Below are positions 2,373 through 64,000 of a stretch of DNA of 64,000 bases, in pieces. This DNA comes from an uncultured Actinomycetota bacterium. Lineage in GTDB: Bacteria > Actinomycetota > Actinomycetes > JAFAQI01. Within the stretch, counting starts at the first letter, position 1; each line of letters begins with the position of its first letter. Where the stretch lies: contig CAWBLI010000005.1 of assembly GCA_963789615.1 (NCBI GenBank), forward strand, positions 1,693,427 through 1,757,426. Reading direction: 5' to 3'. The position numbers and the translations under genes were made by a program. The notes beneath the pieces are model-generated. The model saw only the letters and a list, made by a program, of their open reading frames with translations. It did not search any database and was not told where the DNA came from.

Positions 2373-3094
2373 GCCGCGGCCCACTCACGGCAGGCCTCGA
2401 CGAAGGCCGCGAACAGCGGTTCGCCGCCGACCACCTCGGGATGCCACTGCACTCCCAGCGTCCAGCGCCCGTCGGCACGCTCGACCGCCTCGATGGTTCC
2501 GTCGTCCGCCCAGCCGCTCGCCACCAGCGCGCGAGGGACCTCGGCGACGGCCTGGTGGTGATAGGTCGCGACCTCGATCCGGTCACCGACGATCGCGGCC
2601 AGCCGGCTGCCCGGCGCGACCTTGACGTCGTGACGGCCGTGTTCTCCGACGACCGGGCAGTGGGCGTCACCGCCGACCAGGTCCGGGAGGTGCTGCACCA
2701 GCCCAGCGCCGTGCGCCACCGCCAGCACCTGCATCCCACGGCAGACGCCCAGGACCGGCATCCCGCGTTGCTCGGCCGCCGACGCCAGGGTGAGCTCCCA
2801 GGCATCGCGGTCCACCCGCCCCGGCCCGGTGCTCGGGTCGCGCTCCGCGCCGTACCGGTCCGGGTCGACGTCGGCACCGCCGGTCAGCAGCAGGCCGTCG
2901 ATTCCCGCGAGCGCGGCCTCGACGACCTCGGCATGGGCGGGGCCGGGCGGCAGCAGCATCGGCACGCCGCCCGCGGCGGTGACGCCGGCCGCGTAGCTGA
3001 CCGGCAGCAGGTCGGCCGGCTCGTGCCACACCCCCCAGGCAGCGATCTCCCGGTACGTCGTCAACCCCACCCGCGGCGGCGGCGCGGTCGTCAC
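2369..3094 (-). CDS. gamma-glutamyl-gamma-aminobutyrate hydrolase family protein (class I glutamine amidotransferase-like, PuuD-like)
   Basis: 241 aa with the nucleophile-elbow motif GVCRGMQVL and a C-terminal WHPE motif typical of peptidase C26/PuuD. The GTG start overlaps the upstream stop (GTGA). Confidence 0.8.
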   Translation of the reverse strand: MTTAPPPRVGLTTYREIAAWGVWHEPADLLPVSYAAGVTAAGGVPMLLPPGPAHAEVVEAALAGIDGLLLTGGADVDPDRYGAERDPSTGPGRVDRDAWELTLASAAEQRGMPVLGVCRGMQVLAVAHGAGLVQHLPDLVGGDAHCPVVGEHGRHDVKVAPGSRLAAIVGDRIEVATYHHQAVAEVPRALVASGWADDGTIEAVERADGRWTLGVQWHPEVVGGEPLFAAFVEACREWAAA

Positions 3095-5560
3095 GTGACG
3101 CCCTTCAACCGCTTGCCGGCGGGATCGAACACCGGCTCGGCGACGACGGTGCCACCGTGCCGCTCACCGAACAGCTCGACGGTCACCGGCGTACCAGGCT
3201 CGGCGTCGCCGATGTCGAGGTAGCCGAAGCCGATCGAGGCTCCGACCGAGTAGCCGTAGCCGCCGGAGGTGATCCGGCCGGTGATCCGGTCGCCGACCCG
3301 GACCGGCTCGCTGCCGAGGACGACCGCGCGCGGATCGTCCATCGTGATCGCACACAGCCGCCGGGCCAGGCCGCGCTCGCGGGCCGCGATCAGCGCGTCA
3401 CGGCCCTCGAAGCCGCCGGGCTTGTCGAGCTTCACGCAGAAGCTGAGCCCCGCCTCGTCGGGCGACGTCTCCGGCGTGATGTCCGAGCCCCAGACCCGGT
3501 AGCTCTTCTCGATCCGCATGCTCTCGATGGCGTGGTAGCCGCCGACCACGAGGTCGTCGTCCTGGCCGGCCTCCCACAGCGAGCGCCACAGCGCCGCGCC
3601 GTACTCGGACGACGCGTAGAGCTCCCAGCCGAGCTCGCCGACGAACGTCACGCGCTGGGCACGGACCGGCACATCTCCGACGGTGATCTGCTGAGCGGTC
3701 ATGAACCGGAAGTCGTCCTCGTCGAGCGAGGTCGGCGTGAGCCGGCCGAGGATGTCGCGCGATCGGGGGCCCCACAGCGCGAAGCAGGCATAGCGCCCGG
3801 TGACGTCGGTGATCCGTACGTCGGCGGCGCGCCGTCTTGCCTGGGTTCGCAGCCACGCCAGGTCGTGGGTACCGTACGCCGTGCCGGTGACGATCTGGAA
3901 CTCGTCGTCATCGGTCCTGGTCACGGTGATGTCGGACATGATCCCGCCGCGCCGGTTGAGCGCCTGGGTGTAGGTCACCGCGCCGACGGCTCGCGCGACC
4001 CGGTTGTCGCACACCCACTCGAGCAGGTCGGCCGCGTCCGGGCCGGTCACCTCGATCATCGCGAACGACGACTCGTCGAACAGCCCGGCGCTCGCCCGGG
4101 TGCCGAGGTGCTCGACACCGACAGCAGGTGAGAACGGGCGAGCCGCCCAGCCGCGCGGGCGCAGCGACTCGTCCCCCCGCGCGATGTTGTGCCGGTAGTA
4201 GTCGACCCGCTCCCAGCCGGCCTTCTCGCCGAAGTGCGCGCCGTGCTCGCGATGCCAGGGGTACGCCGGGCTGGTGCGCAGTGGGCGACCCGAGGTGCGT
4301 TGCAGCCCGGGAAACGCGATGTCGTAGTAGGTCTGGTAGTTCTCCAGGGTCCGGCCGAGGGTGTAGCGCGGCGAGCGGTAGTGCCGCCCGAACCGGTTGA
4401 TGTCCATGTGCCAGACGTCGAAGCTGGGCTCACCCTCGACGATCCACTCCGCCATGACCCGGCCGATGCCGCCCGCGCCCGCGATGCCGTGCGCGCAGAA
4501 GCCGGCGGCGACAAAGAACCCGTCGACGTCGGTCTCGCCCAGGCAGAACTCGTTGTCCGGGGTGAACGCCTCCGGGCCGTTGATGATCCGGCGTACCCCG
4601 ACGTCGGCCATCGCCGGCACTCGGACCGCCGCGTTCGTCGCGATCTCCTCGAACCGCGGCCAGTCCTCCGGCAGCAGCCGCCCGTTGAAGGCCGGGTCTA
4701 TGGCGTCATACGACGTCGACGCTGGCGGTCCACGGTGCCGGGTCACGCTCGTAGCCGCCCATGACCAGGCCGTCGACCTCCTGCCGGTAGTAGACGAGCA
4801 GGTCCGGATCGCGCAGCGTGGGCAACGGCGCGCTGCGCGGCGGCAGGAACGCCTCGGTGACCAGGTACTGGTGCGACATCGGGACCACGGGCACCCGCAC
4901 GCCCGCGAGCCGGCCGATCTCGGCGGCGAACATGCCGCCGCAGTCGACGACGACCTCACACGCCACGTCGCCGCGGTCGGTCCGGACCCCGGCGACCCGC
5001 CCCGCCTCGACATCGATGCCGACCACCCGGGTGTGGGTGCGGATGGTCGCGCCGCCGGCCCGGGCGCGCGCTGCTAGCGCCATGCACAGCTGCGACGGGT
5101 CGAGATATCCGTCCGATTCCAGGTAGGCCGCACCGACCACACCCTCGGTGCTCATCAGCGGGAACCGCTCTGCCGCCTCGGCCGGGGAGATCTCGTGCAG
5201 CGGCAGGCCGTAGGCCCGGGCCCAGCCGATCTGCCGGCGGATCTCCTGCAGCCGATCTGGACTGGAGGCGAGCTTGATGCCGCCGCTCTCGGTCCAGCCG
5301 ACCGGGTTCTCGCCGGCCTGCAGGCTGCGGTAGAGCTCGACGGAGTACATGTTCATCCGGGTCAGCGTGGGATCGGCGCGCAGCTGCCCGACCAGCCCGG
5401 CGGAGTGGAACGTCGACCCGCTGGTGAGCTCGTCCCGGTCGAGGACCAGCACGTCGCGCTCGCCCAGCTCGGTGAGGTGGTAGGCGACGCTGGCTCCGCC
5501 GACACCGCCGCCGATGACGACGATCCGGGCAGCGCTCGGGAGGTCTCGCTCGGCGGTCAC
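3091..5560 (-). pseudogene. FAD-dependent oxidoreductase fused to GcvT-type aminomethyltransferase (dimethylglycine/sarcosine dehydrogenase-like), one frame break as assembled
   Basis: The N-terminal ORF 4706..5560 has the dinucleotide fold (IVVIGGGVGGASVAYHL) and a DAO domain. The C-terminal part of ORF 3091..5013 has a GcvT domain ([38 protein letters not shown]). The two frames join at ~4715-4745 (..GGYERDPAPW / SYDAIDPAFNGRLLPEDW..). Confidence 0.8.
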
Positions 5561-5593
5561 CGCGCCATCATGACGTGCGCCGACCTCACAGAA

Positions 5594-5614
5594 AAGGTCT
5601 TGGCACTAGACCTT
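5594..5614. promoter_or_regulatory. candidate GntR-type operator palindrome AAGGTCT-N7-AGACCTT
   Basis: Perfect 7-bp inverted repeat in the 143-bp divergent intergenic region between the FAD-GcvT operon (start 5560) and the kinase gene. The core GGTCT..AGACC fits the generic GntR t.GT-N-AC.a architecture. Confidence 0.35.
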
Positions 5615-5703
5615 GAACGGATTCGGCCCTACGATTCGCCCACCCCGAGGGCGAGAGCCCGTCGACGCGCCGTCGCGGGCTCACACGGAAGCAGGGAGGG
5701 CGT

Positions 5704-6666: not shown

Positions 6667-6690
6667 CAACGATCACAAGGGGGACGACCA

Positions 6691-8262: not shown

Positions 8263-8269
8263 ATCTCGA

Positions 8270-8317: not shown

Positions 8318-8320
8318 CGA

Positions 8321-9396: not shown

Positions 9397-11509
9397 TCAG
9401 GGGCGGTGCTTGAGGTGCACCGTCACGTGACGGGCCGACCGGGAGAGCGTGACGGTGCCGGCCTGGTTGCTGACGTGACCGGCGCTCGCCGACGCGATGT
9501 TGTGCCGGAACGCCGGCAGCTCGAACACGACCGGTCCGGCCGCCTTGGCACCGGCCACCGTCAGCCGGACGGTCTTCCCGTGCGTGACGATCGACGCGGC
9601 GAGCCGGTGACGGTTCGTCGTCGGGAAGTGGCTGACCTTGATCGGTCGACCGCTGGTCAGCCAGGCGTTCGGTACGCCGCGACCCACCAGCAGCTGGCCG
9701 TTCGAGCGCTGCGCCAGCAGCGAGTCGAGCAGGACCATGTTGGCGTTGGCCATTCCCCAGGAGTGCGGCGACGATCCGTTGCCGGACGCCGGATGGGTGC
9801 CCTGCCACGGGCTGCCGGTGTTCGGGTTCGACGCGCTCTCCCACCACGACAGCGGGCCGCTCTGTGAGTTCTTGGTCATGAACTCGTAGCTGAGGATTCC
9901 TTGGGTGCGGTGGTGAGTGCTCGACAGGCCCCAGCTGCCGTAGCCGGCGTTGTACCCGGTGCTGTAGAAGTCGGGCGAGTAGCCGCCGAAGGTGTTGGCC
10001 GGCAGCTTGCCCTTCAGCCGGTTGAAGCCGTAGTTGTACGTCGCGTCGATCAGGCTCTTGCCCGGGCCGTCGAGATGGGCACCGAACAGATACCCGTCCC
10101 AGGCCCACCGGCCGAACAGGAACGGCGCCGCCCAGTTCGCGTCCTCCGGGTTGGAGCAGCGGTTGTCGGTGTTGGGCTCGATCATCGAGCACGGCAGGTA
10201 GTTGAGGTGGTACTTCGAGATCGTCGCGTCCAGGGTCTTGTTCACTGCCTTGAGCAGGCTGTTGTACTCCTTGGTGGCCCAGTGGACCTGGGCGGTGTTG
10301 CCGACCTTCTGCGCGACGTACTTGTACGCCGCAAGCCCGAACAGCGCCGAGTAGTCGTCGATCGTCCAGTAGCCGTTGGCGTCGATGTCGCTGGTCTCGA
10401 GCATGATGCCGCCCGGGCCGGTGCGGTCCTTCGCGATCAGGTGCGCGGTGGCCTCGATGCTCGGCTCGGTGGCACCCGACGGGCCGTCGGTGTCGAAGTT
10501 CTTCTTGGCGAATGCGACGTTGCCGGTCTTGAGGATGTACTCGGCCCACAGCCACGGGTACTTCCACACGCCGTCGTCGTACTGGCTCTGCGCGCCGACG
10601 ACCGACGCGGGCCCGGGTCATCAGGGTCTTGGCCTGGCTGAAGTCGCCCTGCACCAGCAGGTTCGCGAGGATGCCGATCACGTCATGGGAGAACTCCATG
10701 TCGTAGCCGTTCTCGCCGGTGTTGAGGTGCGTGCCGTCGCGGATGATCTGGGTGTAGATGTAGCCGGCCTTGTAGGCGTTGACCAGGCTCTTGTTGGGCA
10801 GCGCCTTGATGTTGGCGATCTGCTTGAGCTGGTGGTTCCAGTACGCCTTCATGTGAGCGAAGTGCTTCGCGTAACCGCCCGCGGACTTCAGCGCAGCGGC
10901 GGTCGGGAACGCGTAGCTGTTGCCGAACCGGTCGGCCGCGACGGCGTAGTCGTGGTGCACGGTCTTCCCGGCCGGCACCCTGGCCGCCGGGTTGGTCAGT
11001 CGGGTCAGCCCCGGCGTGGCGTATGGCTTGATGGTCACCGGCTTCGAGGTCGGGTTGTGGACCGCGAACCGGCTGTAGACCACGACGTACCGGTGGCCTC
11101 CGATGGTGACGGAGTCAGCGAAGTTGGTGATCTGGACCCGGGCACCGGAGCGGTGGAAGGTCGTGACGAGCGCCGGCAGGTAGCCGTCGGCGTTGACCCA
11201 GGTGGTCGGCGCGTTGTCGTAGGCGCCGTACCCGAGGGTCACGTTCTTGCCGTCGCGCACGTAGAAGCTGCCCCCCAGGCAGGCCACGACGCCGTCCTTG
11301 TCGCCCGCCCAGCCGATCAGCCCCGCGTCGCCGAACGTGCCGGACACCGTCATGTTCGCCTGCTCCCCGCAGGAGTACGGCGAAGGCGGGGCGGGCTTCG
11401 CGCCGGTGCTCGCACCGGCCGACCCGGTGGCGACCGTGGCGACGAGGCTCAGCGGTACGGCGACCGCGGTGAGCAGGGCGACAAGCGGGCGGGATGCGGC
11501 AATGCGCAC
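9397..11509 (-). pseudogene. secreted six-hairpin (alpha/alpha)6 glycosidase-like protein, one frame break as assembled
   Basis: The N-terminal frame carries a signal peptide (..LVALLTAVAVPLSLVATVATGSAGA) up to ..QAKTLMT at ~10617. The C-terminal frame (ORF 9397..10569) carries an Asp/Trp-rich barrel region (GYWTIDDYSALFGLAAY, SPHSWGMANANMVLL). The break lies at ~10605-10620 in a ccc/ggg run. I prefer the GTG at 11509 (RBS AGGAGA); the track start is 11548. The GH family is not assignable by eye. Confidence 0.5.
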
Positions 11510-11825
11510 GATGAGTCTCCTGGCGACGGCGTTGTCGGCACTGAGCACTTGGGCAGCCTCTACCCGCCAGCGAGGGAGATCACTCGCTTTTTCCGGTACA
11601 GCGGTTGGAGTGGGTCAACCGGGCCGGTGACTTCAGGGAACTTCCCCGATTCCCCGACCCCCGCGGACAGGTTGCCGACCCGGTCGACCAACTGATCCTA
11701 CGAAGATCGCTGCGGCGAACTCCCGCCAGGGCAGGCACCGTACGTGAACGGTTGATCACACAACCGGGCGTTGATCGCATCCGGACACCGGCCGACCGCC
11801 GCCAGCCGGCTGAGGACTGACGACC

Positions 11826-13369
11826 TCAGCCGTCGGCGGGCGGCGAAACTGCTCGGCCGGCTGCCCCGAAGGCCGCCAACTCGCCTGGCGACGTGGTGAG
11901 CTCGGTGTCGCAGCTACCCGTACTGTCGTCCCATTCGACCATTGCCCTGATGTTCGGGTGGCTGGTCAGAACCGACGGGATCTGGGAGTACCAGTCCGCC
12001 TGGGCGCTGGGAGAACTGGGTCGGAAACCGTGCCGTACTCCGGCAAGATGAACGGCTTGTCGCCGAATCCGTTGGCCTCCAGCCACTGGTACGCCGGGTC
12101 GATGGTCTGGTCGAAGTCCTTCCAGCCCTCGCTGTGGCAGGACGCGAAGTTGTAGGGGTCGTAGCCGACCCAATCGACATAAGAGCTGCCCGGGTACAGA
12201 GACTGGAACTCCGAGTCATGCCCGAGATAGCCCGTGATCGTCCACACCCAGATCACGTTGGTGACACCGAGCGTGGCGAAGACGTCATGGATATGCCGGT
12301 ACGCCGCGACGTAGTCGGCCGGTTGACCTGACGTCCCAACCCTGGTGTCCATCTCGTGGTCGAAGCTGAGCATTACCGGCTTGCCATAGGCCTTGAGGTA
12401 CTCCGCCTCCGGGTCGATCACCGACGCGTCGTACTTTCCTGCTGCGATGTCCGACCACTGGAGGTGGGTGCCCGCAGAGAAGATCCTCGACGCCCAGTCC
12501 TCGAGCAGGATGTGGCCGGAGGCAGCGAGCTGCTCGTCGGCGCTGTCCGGAAACAGCCCTCCCGAGAAGTCGCGGTAGCGGTAGACGATGCCGAACTGAC
12601 CATTACTGGCGGCCTCGAGGTTGGTCACCACGCTGGACCAGTCCTCCGAGTCGCCCGGATGTTTGTACGCCCCCCACCACACACCGCAGGACGACACCAA
12701 CATCGCCGAGACGGTGCACCCGGAGGTCGGCGTGGCCGTCGGAGTCGGCGTGGACGTGGGCGTAGGGGCGGACGTGCTGGCCGCTACAGGCACAACGCTC
12801 ACGTCATCGATCCGGTAGAAGCTCGGATCGTTGCGGATGCTGAACGTCAATGTCGCCGTCGTCGACGCGCCCGCCGGCACATCGAAGTCGCCACTGTACT
12901 GGCCATACCTGTCACCGATGGTCGTCCCGTCATCGGTGAAGACGGTCTGCTGGCTGCCGCCGGTCCCCGCCGGCCCGCTGACCGTCACGAGGAAGGACTC
13001 GCCGGCCGCACCAGGATCAAGGTTCTCGGACGCGAACGACACCTCGTAGGTCTCGCCAGGGCTCACCGGAAGCACCTGGCTCAGCAGGTCCGGGCCGCTG
13101 ACCGAGCCATCGTCGTATTCGTAGGTCCCGCTGTGGGGTGCGTCGTCGCCCACGACGCCGCTGCCCGATGTCGCTTGACCCGAGTCATGGGTCCATCCCG
13201 ACAGATCCCCGGATTCGAAGCCGCAGTTGGCCACGACATTGCCGGTGATCACCGCGCAGCCGGACGCTGCGGCGGTCGCCGTCGAGCCTTGCCACACCGC
13301 CGTCACACCGGCGCCGGCAACAACAGCCGCGGTCGTCACGGCAGCTAGAAGCCTTGCCTTGCGCGCCAT
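11826..13369 (-). pseudogene. secreted CBM-containing glycoside hydrolase, GH26 (beta-mannanase)-like, one frame break as assembled
   Basis: Signal peptide, then a jelly-roll CBM (NCGFESGDLSGWT), a P/T-rich linker (APTPTSTPTPTATPTSG), and a catalytic domain with the GH26-like acid/base segment LSFDHEMD and nucleophile segment FILPEYG. The C-terminus continues in ORF 11826..12173 (AQADWYSQIPSVL..). The break is at ~12015-12030. Confidence 0.6.
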
Positions 13370-15287: not shown

Positions 15288-15736
15288 ATGACGACCACAC
15301 TGATCACTGGCGCCACCGGGGGCTGGGACGGGAGACGGCGCGCCGCCTCGTCGCCGCCGGGCACACCGTCTACCTCGGCGCGCGAGACCCAAACCGGGGC
15401 GCCGCGGCCGCGGCCGAGATCGGCGCTCACCCGGTCACGCTCGATGTCACCGACCAGTGATCGGTCGACGCCGCAGTCACGTTCCTTCGATCCGAGGTCG
15501 ACTCGCTCGACGTCCTGGTTAACAATGCCGGCATCGCCGGCGACCAGCTACCACCTGCGGCAGCGTCAATCGAGGACCTGCAACAGGTATTCGCCACCAA
15601 CGTGGTCGGCGCAACCCGAGTGCTCAAAGCTCTGACGCCGTTGCTCGATGCGAGCGGCTCACCCGTTGTCGTTCAGGTCAGCAGCGCCGTCGGGTCGTTG
15701 GCCCGCAACAGCGCTCCCGAGGCTCGTTGCCTCTGA
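15288..15736 (+). pseudogene. short-chain dehydrogenase/reductase remnant (frameshift, in-frame stop, 3' truncation)
   Basis: MTTTLITGATGG, then a frame break in a G-run at ~15321-15325. The shifted frame reads LGRETARRLVAAGHTVYLGARDPNRGAAAAAEIGAHPVTLDVTDQ-TGA(15458)-SVDAAV..LDVLVNNAGI..VVQVSS... It ends before the YxxxK motif, where the convergent phosphoesterase gene terminates. Confidence 0.7.
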
Positions 15737-15761: not shown

Positions 15762-17379
15762 TCAGCGCTGATGCATTGACCGATTCGCCACCGTCAGCAC
15801 GACGTTGCGGTCGCGAGCCGATCCGGCCGACGTACCGTCCACCCCTACCCGGTCCCGGACCTGCCAGCCGTTCGCCGCTAGCTCGCGGGACAGCCCGGCG
15901 AGCGCCAATGGGTCGAAGCGGCCCTCCCAGGCCAGCGCGCCGAGCGAGTCCAGCACCGTGGTGACCACGACGTAGTGCCCGTCGACCTCGAGCAGCTCGA
16001 CGATCCGGGACTGCTGCGGCCAGTCGATGTGCGAGGCGGTCGTGACCTGCACCAGCCCGACCGAGCCGTCGGGGCGGTGGATGGGCGATACCCGGTGGGC
16101 GTGGGTGTGGCCGTTGAGCCAGAGGACCACGTTCCGGTGCTCGACGATGCAGCGCGTGCAGCTCGCTGGCCAGCACCCGGGCTGGCTCGCCCGCCGCGTT
16201 GCGGTCGTTGAGCAGGGTCTCGAGCGGGTGGTGGCTCAGCAGAACCACCGGACGCTCGGCCGCCGCGGTGAGCTCGGCCCGCAGCCACTCCAGCTGCGGC
16301 CGGTCCAGCGACCCGTGCCAGCCGCCGTGCTCGTTGACGGTGTCGAGGACCACGATGCGGGCCGGGCCCTGGTCGAAGCCGTAGTACGCCGTGCCGTCGG
16401 CGGCGTTGGTGTCGGTGTAGCCGTGCCCGTGCGGCTCGCCACCACGGGACCGGTGCATCCGGACGTGCTCGGCGCGGGTGACGGCAGCCCGGCCCGGGTC
16501 CGGGTCGATGTCGCGGTAGACCGAGCCGACCAGCAGCTCGAGCGACTGCGGGTCGCAGTCGGCGAAGCCGCGGAATGCCCTGACGATGTCGAGCTCCGGC
16601 GCCGGGCTCACCGCCTTGCGGGCGCTGGTGTGGCTGTCGGTCCACGGGGCCAGTGACGGCACGGTCCCCTGCATCAGCAGGTCGTGGTTGCCGTGGACGG
16701 CGAGCCACGGGACGGCCAGCCCGGTCGACAGGAACGGCTCGCGCACCATGTCCAGCAATCCCGGTACCTCGGGGAAGCCGTAGCGGCGGCGCGCGAGGTC
16801 TTCGGGGCCGCCTTCCGGATGCCAGTACCGGGTGTCGTCGACGTCCGGCGATGCGACCCCGTCGTACCGGGTGAGGTCGCCGGAGTCCGGGACGATCAGC
16901 GACGAGCCGTCGAGCAGGTCGAGGTAGGCCTCGAGCTCGTTGCACTGCGCGTTGTCGGTCGAGTCGCCGGTGACGACGGCGAGGTCGACGGGGGCGCCGG
17001 AGACCGGGCCGCGCGGCTCGGCGTTGACGGCCAGCACCATCGCCTCGACGACGTGATGGGTGAACAGCTCCTGCGGCCGGTAGGTCCCGACGATCCCCAG
17101 CTCCCAGCGGAACGGCGACTCGAGGTCGACGAACCGGTCGAGCAGCTCCATCCGGGCGGGTGACTGGTGGTCGGTGACGTGCAGGTCGGACAGGTGCGCG
17201 ACGACCAGCACCGGTCGGGCCCGGTGGCGCCAGTCCTCCGGCAGTGCCGGGGCACCGGTCTCGCGGCGGACCTGGTGCGGTTCGCCGGGTGCCCAGACCA
17301 GCTGCCGGTAGCCGCCCGGCCCCGGCTCCCCGGGAGCGATCCGCCGTCCCGCCGTACTCACCGTGCCAGCCCCCCACAT
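15762..17379 (-). pseudogene. TIGR03767-type metallophosphoesterase, one frame break as assembled
   Basis: Calcineurin-like motifs ([35 protein letters not shown], then in ORF 15762..16130 [10 protein letters not shown]). The break is at ~16143-16150 (..ASELHAL / [14 protein letters not shown]..). The start lies 15 nt downstream of the etfA stop on the same strand. It is a paralog of 48899..50563. Confidence 0.8.
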
Positions 17380-37104: not shown

Positions 37105-37210
37105 CGACTCAGAACATAGCCCTTGACCGACAGTTGTTAAGGAAATACTGTTCAACAAATGCTTAACATCTACCGGAAACCGCGACCTGGCCATCGCCCT
37201 CACAGGGCGC

Positions 37211-50563: not shown

Positions 50564-51702
50564 GCAACCGCATGATGTCCGACGTACCTTCCTCGATCTC
50601 CTCGAGCTTCGCGTCGCGCATCCACTGCTCGACCGGATGCTCGCGCGAGTAGCCCCAGCCGCCGAGGGTCTGCACCGCAGCCCAGGTGCAGTGCATCGCC
50701 GTCTCCGAGGCGGTGAGCTTGGCCATGGCCGCCAGCGACGTCGCCTCGTTCCCGGCGTCGATGGTCCGCGCGGCGTGCAGCACCAGCAGCCGAGCCGCCT
50801 CGATCCGAGTGGCCATGTCGGCGAGCCGGAACCCGACCGCCTGGTGCTCGACGATCGGCCGGCCGAACTGCTCGCGCGTCCTGGCGTAGTCACGCGCGTA
50901 CTCGAAGGCGGCGCGCGCGACTCCGACCGCAGCGGCACCGAGGACGACCCGGGAGATGTCGAAGGTCTTCATCAGCCCGACGAAGCCCTGACCCTCGCTC
51001 GCCGAGCCGGTCGGCCTCGGGCACCACCACGTCGTCGAAGAAGACCTCGCGGCAGACGATGGCGCGCTGTCCCATCTTGCGCATCGGCGCACCGAACGCC
51101 CAGGCCCGCGCGCGTCCTTGGTGAGCAGGAACGCCGAGACGCCGCGCGAGCGCTGCGCCGGGTCGGTCTTGGCGAACACCACGTAGAACTCGGCGGCGCC
51201 GGCGTTGGAGATCCACGCCTTCTGGCCGTTGAGGACGTAGCCCCGACTCGGTCCGGCGGGCGGTCGTGACGATGGAGGCGGCGTCGGACCCGGATCCCGG
51301 CTCGGTCGTGGCCAGCGCGGTCAGCGGCGGTGTCGGGCCGGTCAGCGGGCGCAGCCATCGCTCCTGCTGCTCCGGGGTTCCGAGCGCGAGCACGGGTCGG
51401 CGAAGAAACCGTTGGAACACAACAGGTTTCCGATGCCCGGGTCACCCCAGCACAGCTCTTCCTGCACCAGGCACTGGGTGAACACGTCGGTGAACCCGCC
51501 ACCGCCGTAGCTCGGCCGGGATCATGAAGTCGGTGATGCCGACGGCGGCCGCCTTCGCGAACAGGTCGACCGGAGTCACGATGTCGGCCTCGTCGACCTC
51601 CCGGCCCCGCGGCCTGACCTCGCGGGCCGCGAAGTCGCGCGCCAGCGCGACGACCGCGCGCTGCTCGTCGGTCAGCGGCCAGGGCTCACTCGCGGTCGGC
51701 AT
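50541..51702 (-). pseudogene. acyl-CoA dehydrogenase, about five frame breaks as assembled
   Basis: The conserved ACAD sequence can only be read by hopping frames at ~51507, ~51395, ~51243, ~51110 and ~50990. The reconstructed reading is MPTASEPWPLTDEQRAVVALARDFA..FMIPAE/YGGGGFTDVFTQCLVQEELCWGDPGIGN../VLALGTPEQQERWL..TEPGSGSD../YVLNGQKAWISNAG../PMRKMGQRAIVCREVFFDDV../QGFVGLMKTFD..GWGYSREHPVEQWMRDAKLEEIEEGTSDI. Confidence 0.8.
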
Positions 51703-53745
51703 CGGTCTCCTCGTTGATGATTCGGGCATCGAGCGCCAACGCCCCGGCCGGTGTGACCAGGAGCGGGTTGATCTCGAGCTCGCCGATATCGCGGGATCCG
51801 CGGTGGCGATATCGCCGACAGCGACGATCAGGCGCGCGGCGGCGTCGAGGTCGACGGGGGTGCGGCCGCGGGCGCCGGTCAGCAGGCCGGCACCGCGCAG
51901 CCGGCTCGAGCATCGCTGATGCCCGCGGCAGGTCGAACGGCGCCAGGTCGACCTGCACGTCGTCGAAGAGCTCGGTGAAGATGCCGCCGATCCCCACCAT
52001 GACCACCGGTCCGAAGTGCGGGTCGCGACGGGCGCCGACGATCGAGCTCGACCCCGTCAGTGGCGTCGGCCAGCACCTCGACGACGCAACCGTCCGGCGC
52101 CAGCAGCGCCACCATCTCGCGGTACGCCGCCACCAGGTCGGTGACCGTCTCGATGCCGAGCCGGACGCCGCCGGCATCGGACTTGTGCAGCAGGCCGTTG
52201 GCCTTAGCACCCAGGGAGCGTGCAGCCGTTGGGCGGCCTGGATGAGGGCGGCCTCGTCGCGGACCAGCCGGGCCGACGGGAACGGCAACGCCCGCGGCCG
52301 CGAGCCGCTGCCTCGCGGTCCAGTAGTCGACTGCCGCTGACGTGGTCCGGGACGTGGAGGGTCGGCGCGACGCGCTGTCGCGGGTGGTGCGAGCCGACCC
52401 AGCCCGACGGTGGCGGACTCGACCCGCCGGAACACCGCGAGGCCGCGGGCCCGCAACCGGTCGGCCATCGGCGACGCGGGGAACATGGTGTGCACCGCGA
52501 CCGGTCGCCCGGTCCGGTGCACGACGTCGGCAAGCTCGGTCGGCGATGTCCAGCTCGGCAGCGGCGAGCTCCGGGCCGTACTCGCCGTACCCACCGAAGT
52601 AGCCGCTGACCAGGAGCGCGTCGACCTCACCGGCGTCGAGCAGGTCGGCCGCCACCCGGGGGATGCAGTGCAGGTCCTGCTCGGCGCCGCCTGCGACGTC
52701 GACCGGGTTGGACGTCGCGGCGTGGGACGGCAGGTGGCCGGCGATCCGCGCCCGCAGCGGGTCGGAGAGCACCGGTACGTCGAGACCGGACCGGTGGGCC
52801 AGCTCGGCAGCGACGGCGGCATGCCCACCACCGTCGGTGAGGACGGCGAGCCGGCGCCCCGCCGGTCGGGCCGGGGCCGCGAGCAATGCCAACAGGTCCG
52901 CGAGCTCGCCGAGGCTGTGGACGCGGTAGGCGCCGGCCACGGCGCACGCGGCGTCGATGACCGCCGACGCCGAGACCATCGAACCGGTGTGAGAAGCCGC
53001 AACCCTCGCCGCTGCGGGGCTCGACCCGGCGGCCAACACGACGACCGGCTTCCCGACCGAGCGGGCCGCCTCGACGAACCGGCGGCCGTCGGTGAACTGC
53101 TCGACAGTAGACGGCGATGACGTCGGTGTCGGCGTGGTCGGCGCACGACTCGATCAGCTCGGGCAGCTCGATGTCCGCCTGGTTGCCCACCGAGACGAAC
53201 CGTGAGAAACCCAACCCGTGCTCGACCAGCAGCCCGGCGAGGTCGAGGGAGAGGTTGCCGCTCTGCGAGAGCAGCGCCACCCGACCGGAGGGCAACGGGT
53301 TGGACGTCAGCCGCAAATCGCTGGCCGCGTCGAAGAGTCCGAGACAGTTCGGGCCGAGCAGCCGCGCACCGGCGGACCGCACCCGCCGCGCCATCTCCTC
53401 CTCGACCCGGCGGCCGCCGTCGCCGGTCTCGGCGAACCCCGCCGCGATCCCGACGACCGCCGCCGCGCCCGCGGCGAGCGCGTCGTCGACCGCCTCCGGC
53501 ACCTGCGGCGCGGGCACGCACAGCGCGACCAGCCCGACCGGACCCGGCACATCCGCGACTGACCGGTAGGAAGCCCGGCCGAGGACGACGTCACGGCTGC
53601 GGTTGACGAGGTACGCCGGCCGGGGCCCGGTGAGCGCCGCGCGGCCGAGCCAGTTGCCCCACTTCCGCTCGTCGTCACTCGCGCCGACGACGACGACCGA
53701 CACCGGGTCGAACAGCGCCGCCAGGGAGTCGACGACGACGGTCAT
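51686..53745 (-). pseudogene. ADP-forming acyl-CoA synthetase (acetate--CoA ligase family; CoA-binding + succinyl-CoA-synthetase-like + ATP-grasp), about eight frame breaks as assembled
   Basis: N-terminus VVVVGASDDERKWGN..LLGPNCLGL..LLSQSGNL..VSVGNQADI. The gene then hops frames at ~53098, ~52545, ~52365, ~52295, ~52205, ~52040, ~51895 and ~51795. This recovers ..VEQFTDGRRFVEAARSVGKPVVVLAAG.., ..VLKANGLLHKSDAGGVRLGI.., ..IVGARRDPHFGPVVMVGIGGIFTE.., ..ELEINPLLV. Confidence 0.8.
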
Positions 53746-54540: not shown

Positions 54541-55706
54541 TCAGGCTCCCCGCTCCCGCAGCATCGCCCGCGAGATGATGTGGCGCTGCACCTCGCTGGT
54601 GCCGTCCCAGATCCGCTCGACCCGGGCGTCACGCCAGAACCGCTCGATCGGCAGGTCGCTCATCAACCCCATGCCGCCGTAGATCTGGACCGCGCGGTCG
54701 GTCACCCGGCCCAGCATCTCCGATGCGTAGAGCTTCGCCATCGCAGCGTCGGAGTCGCTCATCCGGCCCTCGGTCAGCTTCCACGCGGCCTGCAGCGTCA
54801 GCAGCTCCGCAGCCTCGATCTCGGTGGCCATGTCGGCGAGCTGGAAGCCGACGCCCTGGAACCGGCCGACCGGCTGCCCGAACTGGTGGCGGCTCGCCGC
54901 CCATTCCGTGCTCAGCTCCATCACCCGTCTCGCGCGGCCGACGCTGAACGCCGCCACGGTCAGCCGGCTGGCACCGAGCCACTCGCTGAGCAGGTCGAAG
55001 CCGCGGCCCTCGTCGCCGAGCAGCGCCGTACCCGGCACCCGGCAGTCGACGAAGGACAGCTCGCAGTGGTGGTAGCCGCGGTGCGAGACCGACGCCGCAC
55101 CGCGGCGCACGGTCAGGCCTGATGTGTCGTGGTCGACGAGGAACGCGGAGATCGCACTTCGCTCCCCACGCGCCGTCTGCTCGGTGCCGGTCACCGCGAA
55201 CAGCACGACGAAGTCGGAGACGTCCGCGTGGCTGATGAAGTGCTTGGTGCCGTTGATGATCCAGCGTCGCCGTCGCCGTCCCGCCGGGCGCTCGTCGTCA
55301 TGGCCCGCACGTCGGAGCCGGCGCCGGGCTCGGTCATCGCGAGGCAGTCGTGCCGCTCGCCGCGGATCGTCGGCAGCAGATAGCGCTCGACCTGCTCGCC
55401 CTGACAGGCCTGCAGGATGTTGCTGGGCCGGGTGACCAGCGCCTGCAACGCGTACGACGTCCACCCCAGCTCCCGCTCGACCAGCGTCAGCGACAGCGCG
55501 TCGAGGCCGCCGCCGCCGAGCTCGGCGGGGAAGTTCGCGGCGTACAGGCCGGCGGCGATCGCCTTGCCTCGGATGTCACGGGCCAGCTCGTCGGGGACCT
55601 CGTCCAGCCGCTCGACCAGGTCCTCGTGCGGCACCAGCTCGCGGCGGACGAAGTCGCGGACGGTCGCGACGATCGCGCGGCGTTCCTCGTCGAGCCCGAA
55701 GTCCAT
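54541..55706 (-). pseudogene. acyl-CoA dehydrogenase, one frame break as assembled
   Basis: MDFGLDEERRAIVATVRDFV..CLAMTEPGAGSDVRAMTTSARRDGDG, then the break at ~55273, then [47 protein letters not shown]. Confidence 0.85.
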
Positions 55707-55717
55707 GACGCTGCCCC

Positions 55718-56200
55718 TCAGCCCACCGGCCGGCGGATGCCCATGACGTGACCGACCGCGTCGGGGCGCGGCAGCGAGGCGTGGGCGTCGCGGATCGCGG
55801 CGATGCGTTCGTAGAGGTCGGTCGGCATCGGGACGACGCGACCGCTCGCCATGTCGACGTGGACGAGCAGCTGCTCGGCGGTCGCGACCGGTTCGCCGGT
55901 GGACTCGTCGCGCACCACGAGGAACAGGTGCAGGCTCTTCGGGCCTAGGTCGAGGACCTGCAGCGTCGAGTCGAGGTGGTCGCCGAGCCCGGACTCCCGC
56001 AGGTGGTGCAGGTGAGTCTCGGCGGTGTAGAGCGAATGACCGGCGGCGCGGTAGTCGTCGTCGATCCCGACGTACCGGAAAAACGCGTCTGCCACGTCGC
56101 CCACCATGACGAGGTAGTTGGCCTCGCTCATGTGGCCGTTGTAGTCGAGCCAGTCGGAGGGCACGACGGTCCGGTAGAGGGCGAGCGGCGCATCGATCAC
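55718..56200 (-). CDS. hotdog-fold thioesterase (betainyl-/carnitinyl-CoA thioesterase-like, CdhB-like)
   Basis: 160 aa with VVPSDWLDYNGHMSEANYLVM..YTAETHLHHLRE. It is a clear paralog of the C-terminal domain of 58205..59645 (VREEWIDYNGHLHDACYAIVL..YTVECHIRFLAE). Confidence 0.75.
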   Translation of the reverse strand: MIDAPLALYRTVVPSDWLDYNGHMSEANYLVMVGDVADAFFRYVGIDDDYRAAGHSLYTAETHLHHLRESGLGDHLDSTLQVLDLGPKSLHLFLVVRDESTGEPVATAEQLLVHVDMASGRVVPMPTDLYERIAAIRDAHASLPRPDAVGHVMGIRRPVG

Positions 56201-57140: not shown

Positions 57141-57268
57141 GCGAGCTGGTACTGCTTGACAACCGGACCCGAGTCCGAGACCGTTTCACATGCTGCAGTG
57201 CACGACTCATTATGTGCGTTCGATGCGCTGTGCATTCATCGTCTGTGTAGTCGACTTCGGAGGTTCCC

Positions 57269-58208
57269 GTGGCGCCAGCCCGCAAGGTCATCATCACGTG
57301 CGCGGTCACCGGGTCCGGTCACACGCCCACGATGTCGCCGCACCTGCCCTACACGGTCGAGGACGTGGTCGGCCAGTCGGTCGCCGCCGTCGCGGCCGGG
57401 CGCGTCGGTGATCCACCTGCACGCCCGTGACCCCAAGGACGGCAGCCCGACCGCCGACCCCGCGGTGTTCCTCGAGTACCTCAAGGCGATCAAGGCCGAG
57501 ACCGACGCCGTGATCAGCATCACGAGCGGCGGCGCCACCGACCAGACGGTGGCCCAGCGGCTGCGGGTGATCTACGAGACCAAGCCCGAGCTGTGCACCC
57601 TCAACCTGGGGACGTTCAACTACGGCAGCTTCCCGATGATCCCGAAGTACGCCGGCCAGTGGAAGTTCGACTGGGAAGAGCCGTATCTCGAGAGCACCCG
57701 TACCGAGCCGTTCGTCAGCACCTTCGCCGACATCGAGCGCATGCTCACCGACGTCGGCCCGGAGACCGGGGCGCGCTTCGAGTACGAGGCCTACGACGTC
57801 GGGCACCTCTACACGCTCGCGTACTACCTCGAGGCCGGGCTCGTGAAGCCGCCGATCTTCCTGCAGACAATCATGGGCGTGATGGGCGGCATCGGCGCCG
57901 AGGTCGACCACCTCTCCCACATGAAGAACACCATCGACAAGCTGTTCGGCGACGCGGTGCAGTGGTCGGTGCTGGGCGCCGGGCGGCACCAGTTCAACAT
58001 GATCACGGTCTCGGCCGTGATGGGCTCGCACGTGCGGGTCGGGCTCGAGGACGGGCTGTTCATCGGCAAGGGCCAGCTGGCGTCGTCGAACGCCGAGCAG
58101 GTCGAGAAGATCACGCGGATCCTCGGCGAGCTCTCGTTGGATATCGCCACACCGGCCGACACCCGCGAGATCCTCGGCCTCAAGGGCATCGACCAGGTCG
58201 GTTGGTGA
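57269..58208 (+). pseudogene. beta-keto acid cleavage enzyme (BKACE/DUF849; dehydrocarnitine cleavage enzyme CdhC-like), one frame break as assembled
   Basis: GTG 57269 with RBS GGAGG 5 nt upstream. VAPARKVIITCAVTGSGHTPTMSPHLPYT..AAG, then the break at ~57399, then ASVIHLHARDPKDGSPT..ISITSGG..GRHQF..HVRVGLEDG (ORF 57156..58208). Confidence 0.8.
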
Positions 58209-59645
58209 GCCAGGGCGGCCGCCCGTCGCCGGAGGACGTCCGCACCGTCGCGATCATCGGGACCGGTGTCATCGGCGCCGGGTGGGCGGCGCACTTCCTG
58301 CGGATGGGCTACGACGTCGTCGCGCTGGGATCCCGGTGCCCGGGCCGAGGAACGGCTCGGCTCGCTGGTTGACACGGCGTGGCCCTCATTGGAGCGGCTC
58401 GGGCTTGCTGATGGTGCGTCGCGTGACCGGCTGCGGTTCTCCGACACGTTGGCGGGTGCGCTCGCCGGCGCGGACTTCGTGCAGGAGTCCGCGCCCGAGG
58501 TGCTCGACGACAAGGTGGCGCTGCTGGCCTCGATCGACGCGGCCACGCCGGCCGGCATGGTGGTGGCGTCGAGCACGTCGGGATTCATGATGAGCGACAT
58601 GGCCGTCGGTACGACGACGCCGGGGCGGTTCGTGGTCGGTCACCCGTTCAACCCGCCGTACCTGATCCCGATCGTCGAGGTCGTCGGCGGCCAGGACACC
58701 GATCCCGACGTGGTCGCGTGGGCGGAGACGTTCTACACGCTGGCCGGCAAGGTGACCCTGACGATGGACCGCGAGGTCCCGGGCTTCGTCGGGAACCGGC
58801 TGCAGGAGGCACTGTGGCGCGAGGCGCTGCACATGATCGACTCCGGCCAGGCGACGGTGCAGCAGATCGACGACTCGATCGCCTACGGCCCGGGGCTGCG
58901 GTGGGCGCTGATGGGGCCGATGCTCACCTTCCACCTGGCCGGCGGCCAGGGTGGCATGGCGCACATGCTGGACCAGTTCGGCCCCGCGCTGCTCGAGCCG
59001 TGGACTCGGCTGACGGCGCCCGAGCTGACGCCGCGGCTGCGGGACCTCGTCGTGGCGGGCGTGGACGAGTCGGTCGGCGACACCACGATCCGCGAGCTGG
59101 AGCAGCAGCGCGACGCGTTCCTCGTCGACCTGTTGCTGTTGCTCGAGAAGTATCGCCGCCGACTGAGCTGCATGCCGGCGCGCCTTACCAGCGGCTACCG
59201 CACCGACGTCCGCGAGGAATGGATCGACTACAACGGCCACCTGCACGACGCCTGCTACGCCATCGTCCTGAGCGAGGCGAACGAAGTGATGTTCGCTGAC
59301 CTCGAGCTCAGCGAGGACTACCGCGTCGAGACCGGTCGGGCGATGTACACGGTCGAGTGCCACATCCGCTTTCTCGCCGAGAGCAAGCGCGGCGACACGC
59401 TGGTCGCGTCGTCGATCCTGGTCAGCGCCGACCCGAAGCGGATGCGAGTGCACACTCTGCTGAGTCTGGACGACGGCACCGCCGTTGCGACCGGCGAGTT
59501 CTTCTACCTGCACGTCGACGAGGCCGCGGGCGGCGTCACGCCGATGCCCGACGACCGATGGGCGCTCGTCGAGGCGCTGCTCAGTGCGCACGCGTCACTG
59601 GAACGACCCGCGCATCTCGGTCGCGGCGTCGCCGCCCCGCGCTAA
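58205..59645 (+). pseudogene. lcdH: L-carnitine dehydrogenase (3-hydroxyacyl-CoA dehydrogenase fold) fused to C-terminal thioesterase, one frame break as assembled
   Basis: The GTG start overlaps the BKACE stop (GTGA). VRTVAIIGTGVIGAGWAAHFLRMGYDVVA, then the break at ~58326, then WDPGARAEERL..FVQESAPE..GHPFNPPYLIPIVEVV..PGFVGNRLQEALWREA, followed by the hotdog domain. Confidence 0.8.
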
Positions 59646-59652
59646 CCCTCGC

Positions 59653-59701
59653 AACTTGTCAGGGCGCTCGGCCCAAACGCAGGCTCAACCGTCCTGACAA
59701 G
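59653..59701 (+). repeat. repeat family 2, copy C1 (ACTTGTCAGG-N29-CCTGACAAGT)
   Basis: acttgtcagggcgctcggcccaaacgcaggctcaaccgtcctgacaagt, 8 nt after the lcdH stop. It has 10-bp perfect terminal inverted arms. Confidence 0.65.
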
Positions 59702-59735: not shown

Positions 59736-59788
59736 CCCCGTCAGTGGACGCGACCACAATGGGTCGCACCAGCACCGAGGAGAACCCG

Positions 59789-60198
59789 ATGGCCAAGTAC
59801 TTGCTGCTCAAGCACTACCGCGGCGCCCCGGCGGCGGTCAACGACGTGCTGCATGGACCAGTGGACGCCGGAGGAGGTCTCGGCGCACATGCAATACATG
59901 AGCGATTTCGCGGACCGGCTCGAGGGAACCGGGGAGTTCGTTGACGGCCAGGCCCTCGCCCCCGACGGGATGTGCGTGCGGTACGACGGCGAGGGTCGGC
60001 CACCGGTCACCGATGGCCCGTTCGCCGAGACCAAGGACCTCATCGCCGGCTGGATGGTGATCGACGTCGACAACCAGGAGCGCGCCATCGAGCTGGCCGG
60101 GCGAGCTCTCGGCCGCTCCAGGGGCGGGCGGGAAGCCGATCCACGAGTGGCTCGAGGTGCGCCCGTTCCTGACCGCGCCACCGACCATCACGGAGTGA
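59789..60198 (+). pseudogene. YCII-related DGPF-domain protein, two frame breaks as assembled
   Basis: RBS GAGGAG. MAKYLLLKHYRGAPAAVNDV, then a break at ~59845, then MDQWTPEEVSAHMQYMSDFADRLEGTGEFVDGQAL..PPVTDGPFAETKDLIAGWMVIDV..AIELAG, then a break at ~60105, then ELSAAPGAGGKPIHEWLEVRPFL. The stop overlaps the sigma start (GTGA). Confidence 0.75.
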
Positions 60199-61354
60199 CC
60201 TCGGAACTGAACGAGGTCCTACTCCGGAGCCTCACGCCGAGCGTGCTCGGGATCCTCGTCCGCCGCGGAGCCGACTTCGCGGCGGCCGAGGACGCCGTAC
60301 AGGACGCGCTGGTCGAGGCGGTCCGCGTCTGGCCGGCCGATCCGCCGCGGGACCCGAAGGGCTGGCTGGTCACCGTGGCCTGGCGCCGGTTTCTCGACGC
60401 GACCCGGGCGGACGCCGCACGTCGTCGGCGCGAAGACCTCGTCGACGAGGAGCCGGCGCCGGGCCCCGCGTCCGGACGGTGGACGACACGCTCCAGCTCT
60501 ACTTCCTGTGCGCTCACCCGTCGCTGACGCCGTCGTCCGCGGTCGCACTCACGCTGCGCGCCGTCGGCGGGCTGACCACCCGTCAGATCGCCCAGGCGTA
60601 CTTGGTGCCCGAGGCGACCATGGCGCAGCGCATCAGCCGGGCCAAGCGCACCGTTTCCGAGCGTGCGCTTCGACCGCCCGGCGACGTCGCCACCGTGCTG
60701 CGCGTCCTCTACCTGGTGTTCAACGAGGGCTACTCCGGCGACGTCGACCTTGCGGCAGAGGCCATCCGGCTCACCCGTCAGCTCGCGGCCTCGATCGACC
60801 ACCCCGAGGTGTCGGGGCTGCTCGCCCTCATGCTGCTCCACCACGCCCGGCGCGCCGCTCGGACCACGCCCGATGGCCGCCTGGTGCCGCTCGCCGAGCA
60901 GGACCGCGGCCGCTGGGACACCACGTCGATCGCCGAGGGAGTCGAGATCCTGCAGGCGGCCCTCGCCCGCGACCGGCTGGGCGAGTTCCAGGCCCAGGCC
61001 GCCATCGCGGCACTCCACGCGGACGCGGCCACCGCCGAGGAGACCGACTGGGTACAGATCGTCGAGTGGTACGACGAGCTCGTGCGCCTGACCGACAGCC
61101 CGGTCGTCCGGCTCAACCGTGCGGTGGCCGTCGGCGAGGCCGACGGGCCGCGGGCCGGCCTGGCGGCGCTCTCGGCGCTGGACGACTCGCTGCCCCGGCA
61201 CACCGCGGTGGCGGCGTACCTCCACGAGCGCGACGGCGACCTGGCGACGGCGGCACGGTTGTACGCCGAGGCGGCGCACAAGGCGCCCAACCTCGCCGAG
61301 CGCGACCACCTGACCCGCCAGGCCGCCCGGCTCAACGCCCGCCAGCCTCGCTGA
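60195..61354 (+). pseudogene. ECF sigma factor with C-terminal TPR-like extension (ECF42-type), one frame break as assembled
   Basis: Region 2 reads AEDAVQDALVEAVRVWP..PKGWLVTVAWRRFLD. After the break at ~60470, region 4 reads LYFLCAHPSLTPSSAVALTLRAVGGLTTRQIAQAYLVPEATMAQRISRAKR. A ~230-aa helical extension follows (FNEGYSG.., RAVAVGEADGPRAGL..). Confidence 0.8.
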
Positions 61355-62347: not shown

Positions 62348-62475
62348 GGGGGTTCTCCTCGGGCCGGGGAATCGGACTCATGATCCCCAACTCGATGCCA
62401 ACTCATGCCACGCCGCGCGGGAGGGTTCGAACCGCGGCAACAGGGGACACCGGCAGGGACGAAAGGTGAGGTGCG

Positions 62476-62676
62476 ATGCTCAGGCTGATCGGGATCTTGC
62501 TCATCATCTGGCTGGCGATCGGCGCGATCGCCGCCGGGCAGCGGCACTACTACAGCGGATCCGCCACCAACTGCGCCAAGAACAGCACCACCGCGGTCAC
62601 GATCGTCGCGGGCCCACTCAACTATGCCGGAGCGAACCCCAAGGTGAAGTGCAAGATCCCGCAGCCCAGCAAGTGA
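62476..62676 (+). CDS. small membrane protein (hypothetical)
   Basis: 66 aa. A strong RBS AAGGTGAGG lies 5 nt upstream. N-terminal TM helix MLRLIGILLIIWLAIGAIAAG. High GC3. Confidence 0.55.
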   Translation: MLRLIGILLIIWLAIGAIAAGQRHYYSGSATNCAKNSTTAVTIVAGPLNYAGANPKVKCKIPQPSK

Positions 62677-62691
62677 CGCCATGATGGGGGC

Positions 62692-64000
62692 ATGAGCGAC
62701 GACGGCGTCCAGTTCAGCCGAGGCCGGCGGTCGACGCAGCAGCTCGACGACGGCACGAGACGTGCTCGCTGCGGCGGTCCGTCCGATCGACGCCGAGCTG
62801 GCCGACCGGATCGAGCGAGAACCCAACTGGCGCAAGACCTATCCCACTCACCTGCGCCGGCTGACCGAAGTCTCCGCCTCGACGGCTGACGCCGGTCACG
62901 TCATCGCTCGCTCGGGCCTCGACGCCTTGCATGCTCGGTTCGAGTTGGTTCGTGACGGCGTACCTCGGCCGTTGCTCGCCGCCGTTGCGGACGACGAGCC
63001 GCGGCCGGTCGACACCGAAACGGTTGTCGGCACCGGCACACCACCGAGCGAGCTCGTCGTACCGCTCGGATCGCAGCGGCTGCGCGGCCAGGCGCTGCGC
63101 GACCGCGTCGACGACTGGGTACGACGAGGCCTGGTCGAGCCGTCATTCGCGACCGCGATCCATCAGGTCATCGACCATCCCGAGTGGCTCGACCTCTCCG
63201 GCCGCACGTTCGCCCTGCTCGGTGGCGGCGGCGAGATGTCGCCGCTGTCCTCCCTGCTCGACTGGGGTGCCGACGTCGCTGTCGTCGACCTACCGCGCGC
63301 CGACATCTGGCGACGCATCATCGACCTGGCCAAACGAGGACCGGGACGCCTCCAGATTCCCGTCATGCCGACCCGGGCCAAAGCCACTGACCTCGAAGAC
63401 CGAGCCGGCATCGACCTGCTCGTCGACGCACCGGCGGCCCGGCAGTGGATCGCGCACCTTCCCGGGCCGTTGGTGCTCGGCAACTACGCGTACGCCGATG
63501 GGGCCAGCTTCGTGCGGGTCGCGATGGCCGCCGACGCCATCGCCGCGACACTGCTCGACCAACGCGACGACGTCTCGCTCGCCTACCTGGCGACGCCGAC
63601 GGATGTGTTCGCCGTACCGCCCGAAGTGGTCGCGGACGCCCGGGCCCGAGTCGCCACGACGAGCGCGGTGTGGCGGATGCTGGATTCACCGATGCGGATG
63701 GGTACAGCCGGCCGCGCCTTCGTGCCGCACTACCGCTCGACGGTGAAGGACAGCAGCGGCCGCGAGCTCGGTGTCGCCGACACCCTGATCGTGCAGCAGG
63801 GGCCGAACTACGCGCTGGCGAAACGGCTGCAGCGCTGGCGCGCCATCACCGCGCGGTACGACGGTGTCTGGTCGTCGGCACACATCGCGCCGCCGAGCCG
63901 GACCAAATCGGTGACCAAGAACCGCATCCTCGGCGCGGCCTACACCGGCTCGTCGCGGCTCGGCGTCGAGGCGTTCGAGCCGGCGACCTCCAGCGTGCTG
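62692..64000 (+). pseudogene. hypothetical protein, 5' frame break as assembled, continues beyond right edge
   Basis: A stop-free frame runs from 62695 to the window end. It reads ..DVLAAAVRPIDAELADRIEREPNWRKTYPTHLRRL..FALLGGGGEMSPLSSLLDWGADVAVVDLPR..LIVQQGPNYALAKRLQRWRAI... It has no stop, so it is not in the ORF track. The only ATG plus context (62692, MSDDGVQFS..) is one frame off, with the junction at ~62755. A GTG at ~62759 is an alternative start. Confidence 0.5.

Follow-up and report, generated by a model that had tools for sequence, protein, structure and literature searches.

Reading-frame breaks in a 64-kb stretch of an uncultured actinobacterium are very probably uncorrected consensus errors, with one genuine pseudogene among them

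Are the genes of an uncultured Actinomycetota bacterium decaying, or is the published sequence wrong? A stretch of 64,000 nucleotides from its genome assembly (GCA_963789615.1, contig CAWBLI010000005.1; hereafter the window) raises this question. According to a first-pass annotation, about 30 breaks leave 17 genes readable only by switching frame. A plot of third-position GC content (GC3), used to follow the coding frame, and independent comparators agree, and we count ~33 frame-changing events across the 17 genes. Here we report that nearly all of these breaks are very probably errors in the consensus of an unpolished, most likely long-read contig, and not signs of decaying genes, because short-read data of the same and of close populations lack them. 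One of the 17, a remnant of an SDR (adh_short) gene, is a genuine pseudogene.

Results

As a stand-in for raw reads, we used Logan contigs of public Illumina soil metagenomes, of which 11 runs were aligned to the window (X1, X2, X3, X6, X11, X20 and X22 are labels of such runs). These contigs come from other soil metagenomes, the reads of the source sample lying outside the comparison; every public run sharing 31-mers with the window is a soil metagenome. Short-read contigs of the same population, with identical or near-identical flanks, depart from the window at the breaks. In contigs at least 93% alike, several of them with 0-2 mismatches, the indel is absent at 10606/7, 12017, 16149, 26037, 26655, 34585, 36889, 50997 and 51098, and likewise at 51105, 51393, 51785/7, 53106, 57401, 58323, 59850 and 62718. 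One base is omitted at 57401, 58323, 59741 and 62718 by contigs that are at least 98% alike over 48-64 kb; at 57401, 58323 and 62718 these differ from the window by a single gap and 0-1 mismatches. Over 10.5-17.5 kb, a total of 3.2 kb is covered without any mismatch by the eight longest contigs of X2, yet there are three indels in this region. No break was reproduced among the listed differences or displayed contigs of the 11 runs, with one X1 contig at 58323 as a possible exception. The first-pass annotation had favoured indel errors of sequencing or assembly, and not old pseudogenes, and this preference is borne out by contigs of the same or sister populations that do not carry the breaks.

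Relatives of the organism lead to the same result. When the intact IclR regulator gene at 56427-57137 was compared with species-representative genomes, only uncultured soil Actinomycetota metagenome-assembled genomes (MAGs) matched, the best being "Mycobacteriales bacterium SMAG_U5597" (98% amino-acid identity over that gene), an NCBI MAG assembled with megahit. Look-ups of exact sequence with three unbroken proteins of the window gave no match. Two of its contigs are collinear with the window: L001 aligns to 46439-59652 at 89.7% and L079 to 3-10808 at 91.5% nucleotide identity. Three JGI metagenome contigs of ~90% identity cover 1897-9944 (L089), 19170-29832 (L087) and 22118-28729 (L088). In those 90-91% relatives that span them, the broken genes are single intact open reading frames (ORFs), and within genes, gaps that change the frame, with a net length not divisible by three, occur only at or near the claimed places (comparison with L001, L079 and L087-L089). 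Nucleotide comparison was possible at all breaks but ~60410-60470, and each time short-read metagenome contigs or MAGs were free of the surplus base or had the one that the window lacks.

The reconstructed frames also align across the junctions, as homologs and Pfam profile coordinates continue over the breaks. Profile coordinates carry on from one fragment to the next in the permease, the HTH regulator, the beta-keto acid cleavage enzyme (BKACE), the 3-hydroxyacyl-CoA dehydrogenase, the YCII protein and the sigma factor; Pfam missed the N-terminal piece of the phosphoesterase in the 27-kb region, the C-terminal piece of the GH26 protein and the first piece of the permease. A blastx screen used all stop-to-stop ORFs of the retrieved loci as subjects, and only junctions with many or with short-read subjects were kept. 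Many others were discarded as gene boundaries, antisense open frames of high-GC DNA or frameshifts within the subjects, the latter in long-read MAG loci and in a fragmented serine dehydratase gene of L084-L086. Loci with the SoxB-like gene (L082-L086) were too divergent or non-syntenic for nucleotide checks across 25-37 kb.

For six broken genes spanned by L001 or L079, frame-corrected versions were built with the ORFs of the relatives as frame guide. None contains an internal stop (Table 1). Ratios of nonsynonymous to synonymous substitution rates (dN/dS) of the six are low and comparable to those of intact neighbours (0.009-0.234); no relaxation of selection was detected in them by stops or by dN/dS. 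The broken genes are under normal purifying selection.

The kind of error is informative as well. There are ~27 extra bases against ~4 missing ones in the window. The first-pass annotation had linked several breaks to short homopolymers; this link holds for cases such as GGG in place of GGGG at 12017 but is weak overall, since ~12/17 of the best-placed insertions lie outside runs of the same base and extend none. Extra bases also occur between genes, at 37175/7 (four runs) and 59741 (two runs); neither site was in the first-pass list, nor would reading frames have revealed it. Against the population with identical flanks, the window shows indels roughly as often as substitutions. A related long-read-style contig (L080; ENA ERZ25039594 contig_95032), when compared with the window, has ~130 single-base insertions over 11.7 kb, ~1% per base, with fragmented gene calls, and is a far worse case of the same artefact.

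If the broken genes were expressed through programmed ribosomal frameshifting or transcriptional slippage, the intact sequence on either side of each break would be accounted for, which is all that speaks for this model. Such a mechanism would have to operate at ~30 sites in 16 unrelated genes that have no slippery motif or sequence context in common, orthologs are plain single ORFs, and DNA of the same population lacks the indels. We reject this model, together with homopolymer slippage, because the sites are mostly non-homopolymeric and without a common motif, and we regard its probability as negligible.

The events are unevenly spread. Sixteen of the ~33 fall within 2.1 kb (50999-53106; Poisson P ~7e-14), where the density is ~8 per kb, compared with ~5 per 10 kb overall. 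The X2 contigs show raised mismatches (2-4%) over the same interval, and the share of 31-mers present in run X2 is 0.18 in 50.5-53.8 kb versus 0.57 in a clean stretch. Two genes are affected, and the five visible frame switches in the first acyl-CoA dehydrogenase (ACAD) and eight in the acyl-CoA synthetase, both counts from the first pass, were reproduced. All six single-base events of the first ACAD gene are gaps relative to L001, in which the gene encodes ~400 aa. Short-read contigs, here at least 94% alike, confirm those at 50997, 51098, 51105 and 51393, and X20 has one gap within 51115-51269; the corrected gene is 94.8% identical. In the synthetase gene, gaps relative to L001 lie at 51785 and 51787, 51901/51906, 52043, 52205 (a missing base), 52284, 52335/52343, 52537 and 53106, of which 51785/51787 and 53106 are confirmed by short-read contigs. 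Once corrected, the gene is 87% identical; in the relatives it is a single ORF of ~690 aa.

In this cluster the X2 population also mismatches the window more often, a coincidence that a chimeric consensus of co-occurring strains would produce, with indels arising where an assembler or polisher merged diverged reads and not from raw error at low coverage. Structural variants are indeed present in the population, namely an X1 joint from 11544 to 15776 and an 18-nt variant at 12751. On the other hand, around isolated errors such as those at 12017 and 34585 the window otherwise matches the population exactly, and there is no sign of mixed strains there. We consider strain merging a possible though rather doubtful source of the indels; it is in any case a sub-case of assembly artefact and no biological alternative.

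As a biological alternative, the pseudogenes could be genuine and very young: the clone that was sequenced would truly carry ~30 frameshifts, for example in a mutator lineage or after a relaxed niche had inactivated choline, carnitine and acyl-CoA catabolism. The concentration of breaks in catabolic genes of 50.5-62.8 kb, the presence of one real pseudogene in the same window and the origin of the compared reads outside the source sample would be compatible with it. However, the broken genes have neither nonsense mutations nor raised dN/dS, indels match the frequency of substitutions even where flanks are identical, intergenic DNA is affected, insertions predominate, 16 events crowd into 2.1 kb alongside raised mismatches, and none of the breaks recurs in what was listed or displayed for the 11 public runs. 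The "very recent decay" that the first-pass annotation had kept as an option is therefore disfavoured, and we hold it to be very unlikely.

The SDR remnant differs from the other 16 genes. Its joined reading matches positions 2-142 of 195 of the adh_short profile, and it stops where the convergent phosphoesterase gene starts. An X1 contig over 15431-15809 agrees with the window with 0 mismatches and 0 gaps, the TGA included; reproduction of a lesion by the population was found for this TGA only and for none of the other 16 genes. Because an Illumina contig reproduces the TGA exactly and the 3' end is missing, the SDR remnant is a genuine pseudogene, as the first-pass annotation had suggested by singling it out. 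Short-read contigs flagged no indel at 15321-15325, a bin that has depth, and the frameshift near 15324 is likely, rather than certain, to be real as well.

The remnant lies in a 5.9-kb segment (11544-17394) that is absent from L080, and run X1 contains the variant in which 11544 is joined to 15776. The segment has a slightly lower GC content (~0.66) and carries the GH26/CBM protein, the SDR remnant, a metallophosphoesterase and a protein with fibronectin-type repeats that we take, from the sequence alone, to be endonuclease/exonuclease/phosphatase-like. The segment has the appearance of an island that varies between strains.

Table 1. Interrupted genes and intergenic errors in the window, with internal stops and dN/dS of six genes after frame correction
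Feature	Position	Strand	Lesion	Internal stops	dN/dS
DAO/FAO_M/GCV_T dehydrogenase gene (dimethylglycine/sarcosine-dehydrogenase-like)	3091..5560	-	extra C at 4722	0	0.083
Secreted protein, no family assigned	9400..11548	-	one extra base (C) at 10606/10607		
CBM_4_9 + GH26 secreted glycoside hydrolase (Pfam)	11829..13369	-	one G missing after 12017, GGG for GGGG		
SDR (adh_short) remnant	15288..15733	+	frameshift near 15324, in-frame TGA 15458-15460, C-terminal third missing		
Metallophosphoesterase gene, paralogous to 49040-50521	15765..17361	-	one extra base at 16149		
APC-family amino-acid permease gene	25154..26802	-	extra G at 26037, extra A at 26660		
Metallophosphoesterase gene, 318 aa	26840..27797	-	extra A at 27255		
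Aldehyde dehydrogenase gene	33999..35469	+	one extra base at 34585		
ArsR/HTH_20-type regulator gene	36453..37104	-	one extra base at 36889		
Intergenic extra base	37175..37177	.	omitted in all four runs		
First ACAD gene	50541..51702	-	+1 at 50999, 51099, 51109, 51240, 51508; -1 at 51396	0	0.099
ADP-forming acyl-CoA synthetase gene (CoA_binding_2, Succ_CoA_lig, ATP-grasp_5; Pfam)	51686..53745	-	eight frame switches	0	0.189
Second ACAD gene (Pfam)	54541..55805	-	extra GCGTC (+5) at 55264, beside GCCGTCGCCGTC	0	0.115
BKACE gene	57284..58208	+	extra C at 57396-57401	0	0.125
Gene with 3-hydroxyacyl-CoA dehydrogenase + thioesterase domains	58209..59645	+	extra C at 58323	0	0.204
Intergenic extra base	59741..59741	.	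omitted by X1 and X22 contigs		
YCII-domain protein gene	59789..60198	+	extra bases at 59850/59852 and 60102		
ECF-type sigma factor gene (Sigma70_r2, r4_2, DUF6596)	60195..61354	+	frame switch between 60410 and 60458		
Gene without assigned function, runs past window end	62692..64000	+	one extra base at 62718		

All breaks of the first-pass list were recovered within ~40 nt, although two had to be moved, from 27243 to 27255 (12 nt) and from 62755 to 62718 (37 nt). The long stretches described as clean are so by comparison at 19.2-25.1, 28-33.9 and 46.4-50.9 kb, whereas for 37.4-46.4 kb the statement comes from intact ORFs only. By comparison with relatives, 1-10.8 kb is clean apart from its two breaks. 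The first of these is in the DAO/GCV_T gene, which is one 822-aa ORF in both L079 and L089, with a sole frame-changing gap at 4722 (95.7% identical when corrected). The second is a gap relative to L079 at 10606, and X20 and X1 contigs omit one base at 10606/10607.

At 12017, contigs of four runs (X2, X20, X1 and X22), with 0-2 mismatches in 206-517 nt, all carry one more G. One X1 contig has an 18-nt in-frame insertion at 12751, in the Pro/Thr-rich linker of the same GH26 protein, which is natural repeat-length variation. The extra base at 16149 is omitted in an X1 contig, and a homolog of 44-46% identity (L081, the sole match of one metagenome-contig scan) follows frame -2 down to 16132 and frame -3 from 16163. 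The permease is an intact 554-aa ORF in L087 and L088, with gaps at 26037 and 26660, and short-read contigs drop one base at 26037/41 and 26655/59. The adjacent phosphoesterase gene is also intact in L087 and L088, both with a gap at 27255. Its joined reading is 98% identical to JGI protein P0241 over 100% of the length, both proteins having 318 aa; among the short-read contigs aligned to 27100-27400, none spans 27243-27255. The extra base in the aldehyde dehydrogenase gene at 34585 is absent from an 848-nt X2 contig (5 mismatches, 99.4% identical) and from an X20 contig, and in the blastx screen seven homologous ORFs change frame at 34582. At 36889, X2 and X1 contigs omit the base, and the HTH_20 profile match ends at 28/51, at the break.

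Downstream of the cluster, Pfam assigns the gene at 54.5-55.8 kb to a second ACAD, and a CaiB-like label was dropped. The five additional nucleotides at 55264 are absent from eight relatives, and 65 homologous ORFs change frame there. The event is probably an extra hexamer unit minus one base, that is, a real or artefactual repeat difference combined with a one-base error. In the BKACE gene, the break is a gap relative to L001, a 307-nt X2 contig (1 mismatch) omits one base at 57401, and the downstream piece begins at profile position 39. At 58323, in a gene whose product appears from its two domains to be of the L-carnitine-dehydrogenase type, there is again a gap relative to L001; X2 and three X1 contigs omit the base, and 63 homologous ORFs change frame. 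At 59850/59852 and at 60102, one base each is missing from X1, X3 and X6 contigs that belong to related strains, and the joined reading matches the YCII domain. Four protein homologs of the sigma factor follow frame 3 up to 60410 and frame 2 from 60458, its Pfam domains being split between the frames. At 62718, the base is omitted by a 359-nt X2 contig (0 mismatches) and by an X11 contig.

The window has a G+C content of ~70% and a very high third-position GC content, typical of actinobacteria. Its regions 1-37000 and 53700-59700 encode DAO/GCV_T dehydrogenases, a Rieske oxygenase, a SoxB-like oxidase, a serine dehydratase, an aldehyde dehydrogenase, BKACE, the fused 3-hydroxyacyl-CoA dehydrogenase-thioesterase (carnitine-dehydrogenase type), and IclR and GntR regulators. 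Such a set of genes points to the breakdown of choline, glycine betaine, sarcosine and carnitine. At 29185-30567, the L-serine dehydratase alpha gene is intact, whereas it is split into two small ORFs in L084 (8880-9474), L085 (6949-7542) and L086 (6913-7498), resulting in false junctions in the blastx screen. There are two paralogous pairs, the metallophosphoesterases at 15765-17361 and 49040-50521 and the ACADs at 50541-51702 and 54541-55805; owing to the latter paralogy, metagenome contigs cross-align and give spurious ~4-kb "joints" when aligned to the window. Palindromic intergenic inserts of ~50 nt at 8263-8320 and 25102-25163 are absent from the ~90% relatives (L079, L089 and L087). Judged by eye, each has long inverted repeats within it and may represent a hairpin or a terminator-like element.

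Discussion

Apart from the SDR remnant, the frame breaks described here are very probably an assembly artefact and not a wave of pseudogenisation. Short-read contigs of the same and sister populations lack the indels, the corrected genes show no further damage, and the events strike coding and non-coding DNA alike, tracking local consensus quality. The contig is most likely a metagenome or MAG consensus from long reads, of Nanopore or PacBio continuous long read (CLR) type, that was never polished with accurate reads. Uncorrected single-base indels would then be spread over the contig, with 50999-53106 as a locally poor part, presumably because coverage was low there or because several strains were mixed when the consensus was built; both this cause and the platform are what we infer from the error pattern. 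An error within a coding sequence changes its reading frame, and 16 functional genes therefore appear interrupted that are very probably intact in the organism itself.

Several observations weigh against this explanation. The short-read contigs belong to the same population or to sister ones, which need not be the same clone. The comparators are ~90% relatives at 4722, 27255, 52043-52537 and 55264 and protein homologs at ~60410-60470, so at these places the gene is shown to be normally intact, which is not the same as a wrong base in the window. The event at 55264, with 5 nt in a hexamer repeat, is no simple single-base error. At 58323, a short contig of X1, at least 98% alike and of depth 5.6, extends over the site and was not flagged for the deletion. 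If the indels were real in one clone, an insertion-biased mutator lineage would have ~16 frameshifted genes and a hypermutated patch at 51-53 kb, next to a sister population that is intact; we judge this even slightly less probable than recent pseudogenisation in general. Consensus error remains by far the best explanation.

The biological interest of these findings is low and their value practical, as a correction list. The position list can be used directly for polishing the sequence. Genes of the window for catabolism of choline, betaine, sarcosine, carnitine and acyl-CoA are best regarded as intact, and proteins from 50.5-62.8 kb need prior frame correction. Automatic annotation of the contig would give ~16 false pseudogenes or ~40 gene fragments, and pathway-completeness, pangenome and dN/dS analyses on it are biased. 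The approach itself indicates that public short-read metagenomes can replace missing raw reads when a MAG is audited.

Genome decay with many frameshifted pseudogenes is known from Mycobacterium leprae and from recent host-restricted pathogens. The window resembles such genomes in having many frameshift-interrupted genes in one region. Real decay, however, adds nonsense mutations, deletions, raised dN/dS and lesions shared by the population, and among the interrupted genes only the SDR remnant conforms to this picture. The classic signature of Nanopore sequencing is deletions in homopolymers. Here insertions prevail (~27:4) and are mostly non-homopolymeric, a pattern more like raw or CLR-type error, or like a consensus of very low coverage. 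Gene-fragmenting indel errors in long-read assemblies were reportedly described by Watson and Warr in 2019. The window is similar to Nanopore and PacBio CLR assemblies in that single-base indels split conserved ORFs without nonsense mutations and are resolved by short reads or orthologs. Such gene-fragmenting indels are documented for long-read assemblies (PMC12007338; PMC9262707). As in those assemblies, the density of errors probably follows local coverage, and the related contig L080 displays the same pattern more severely.

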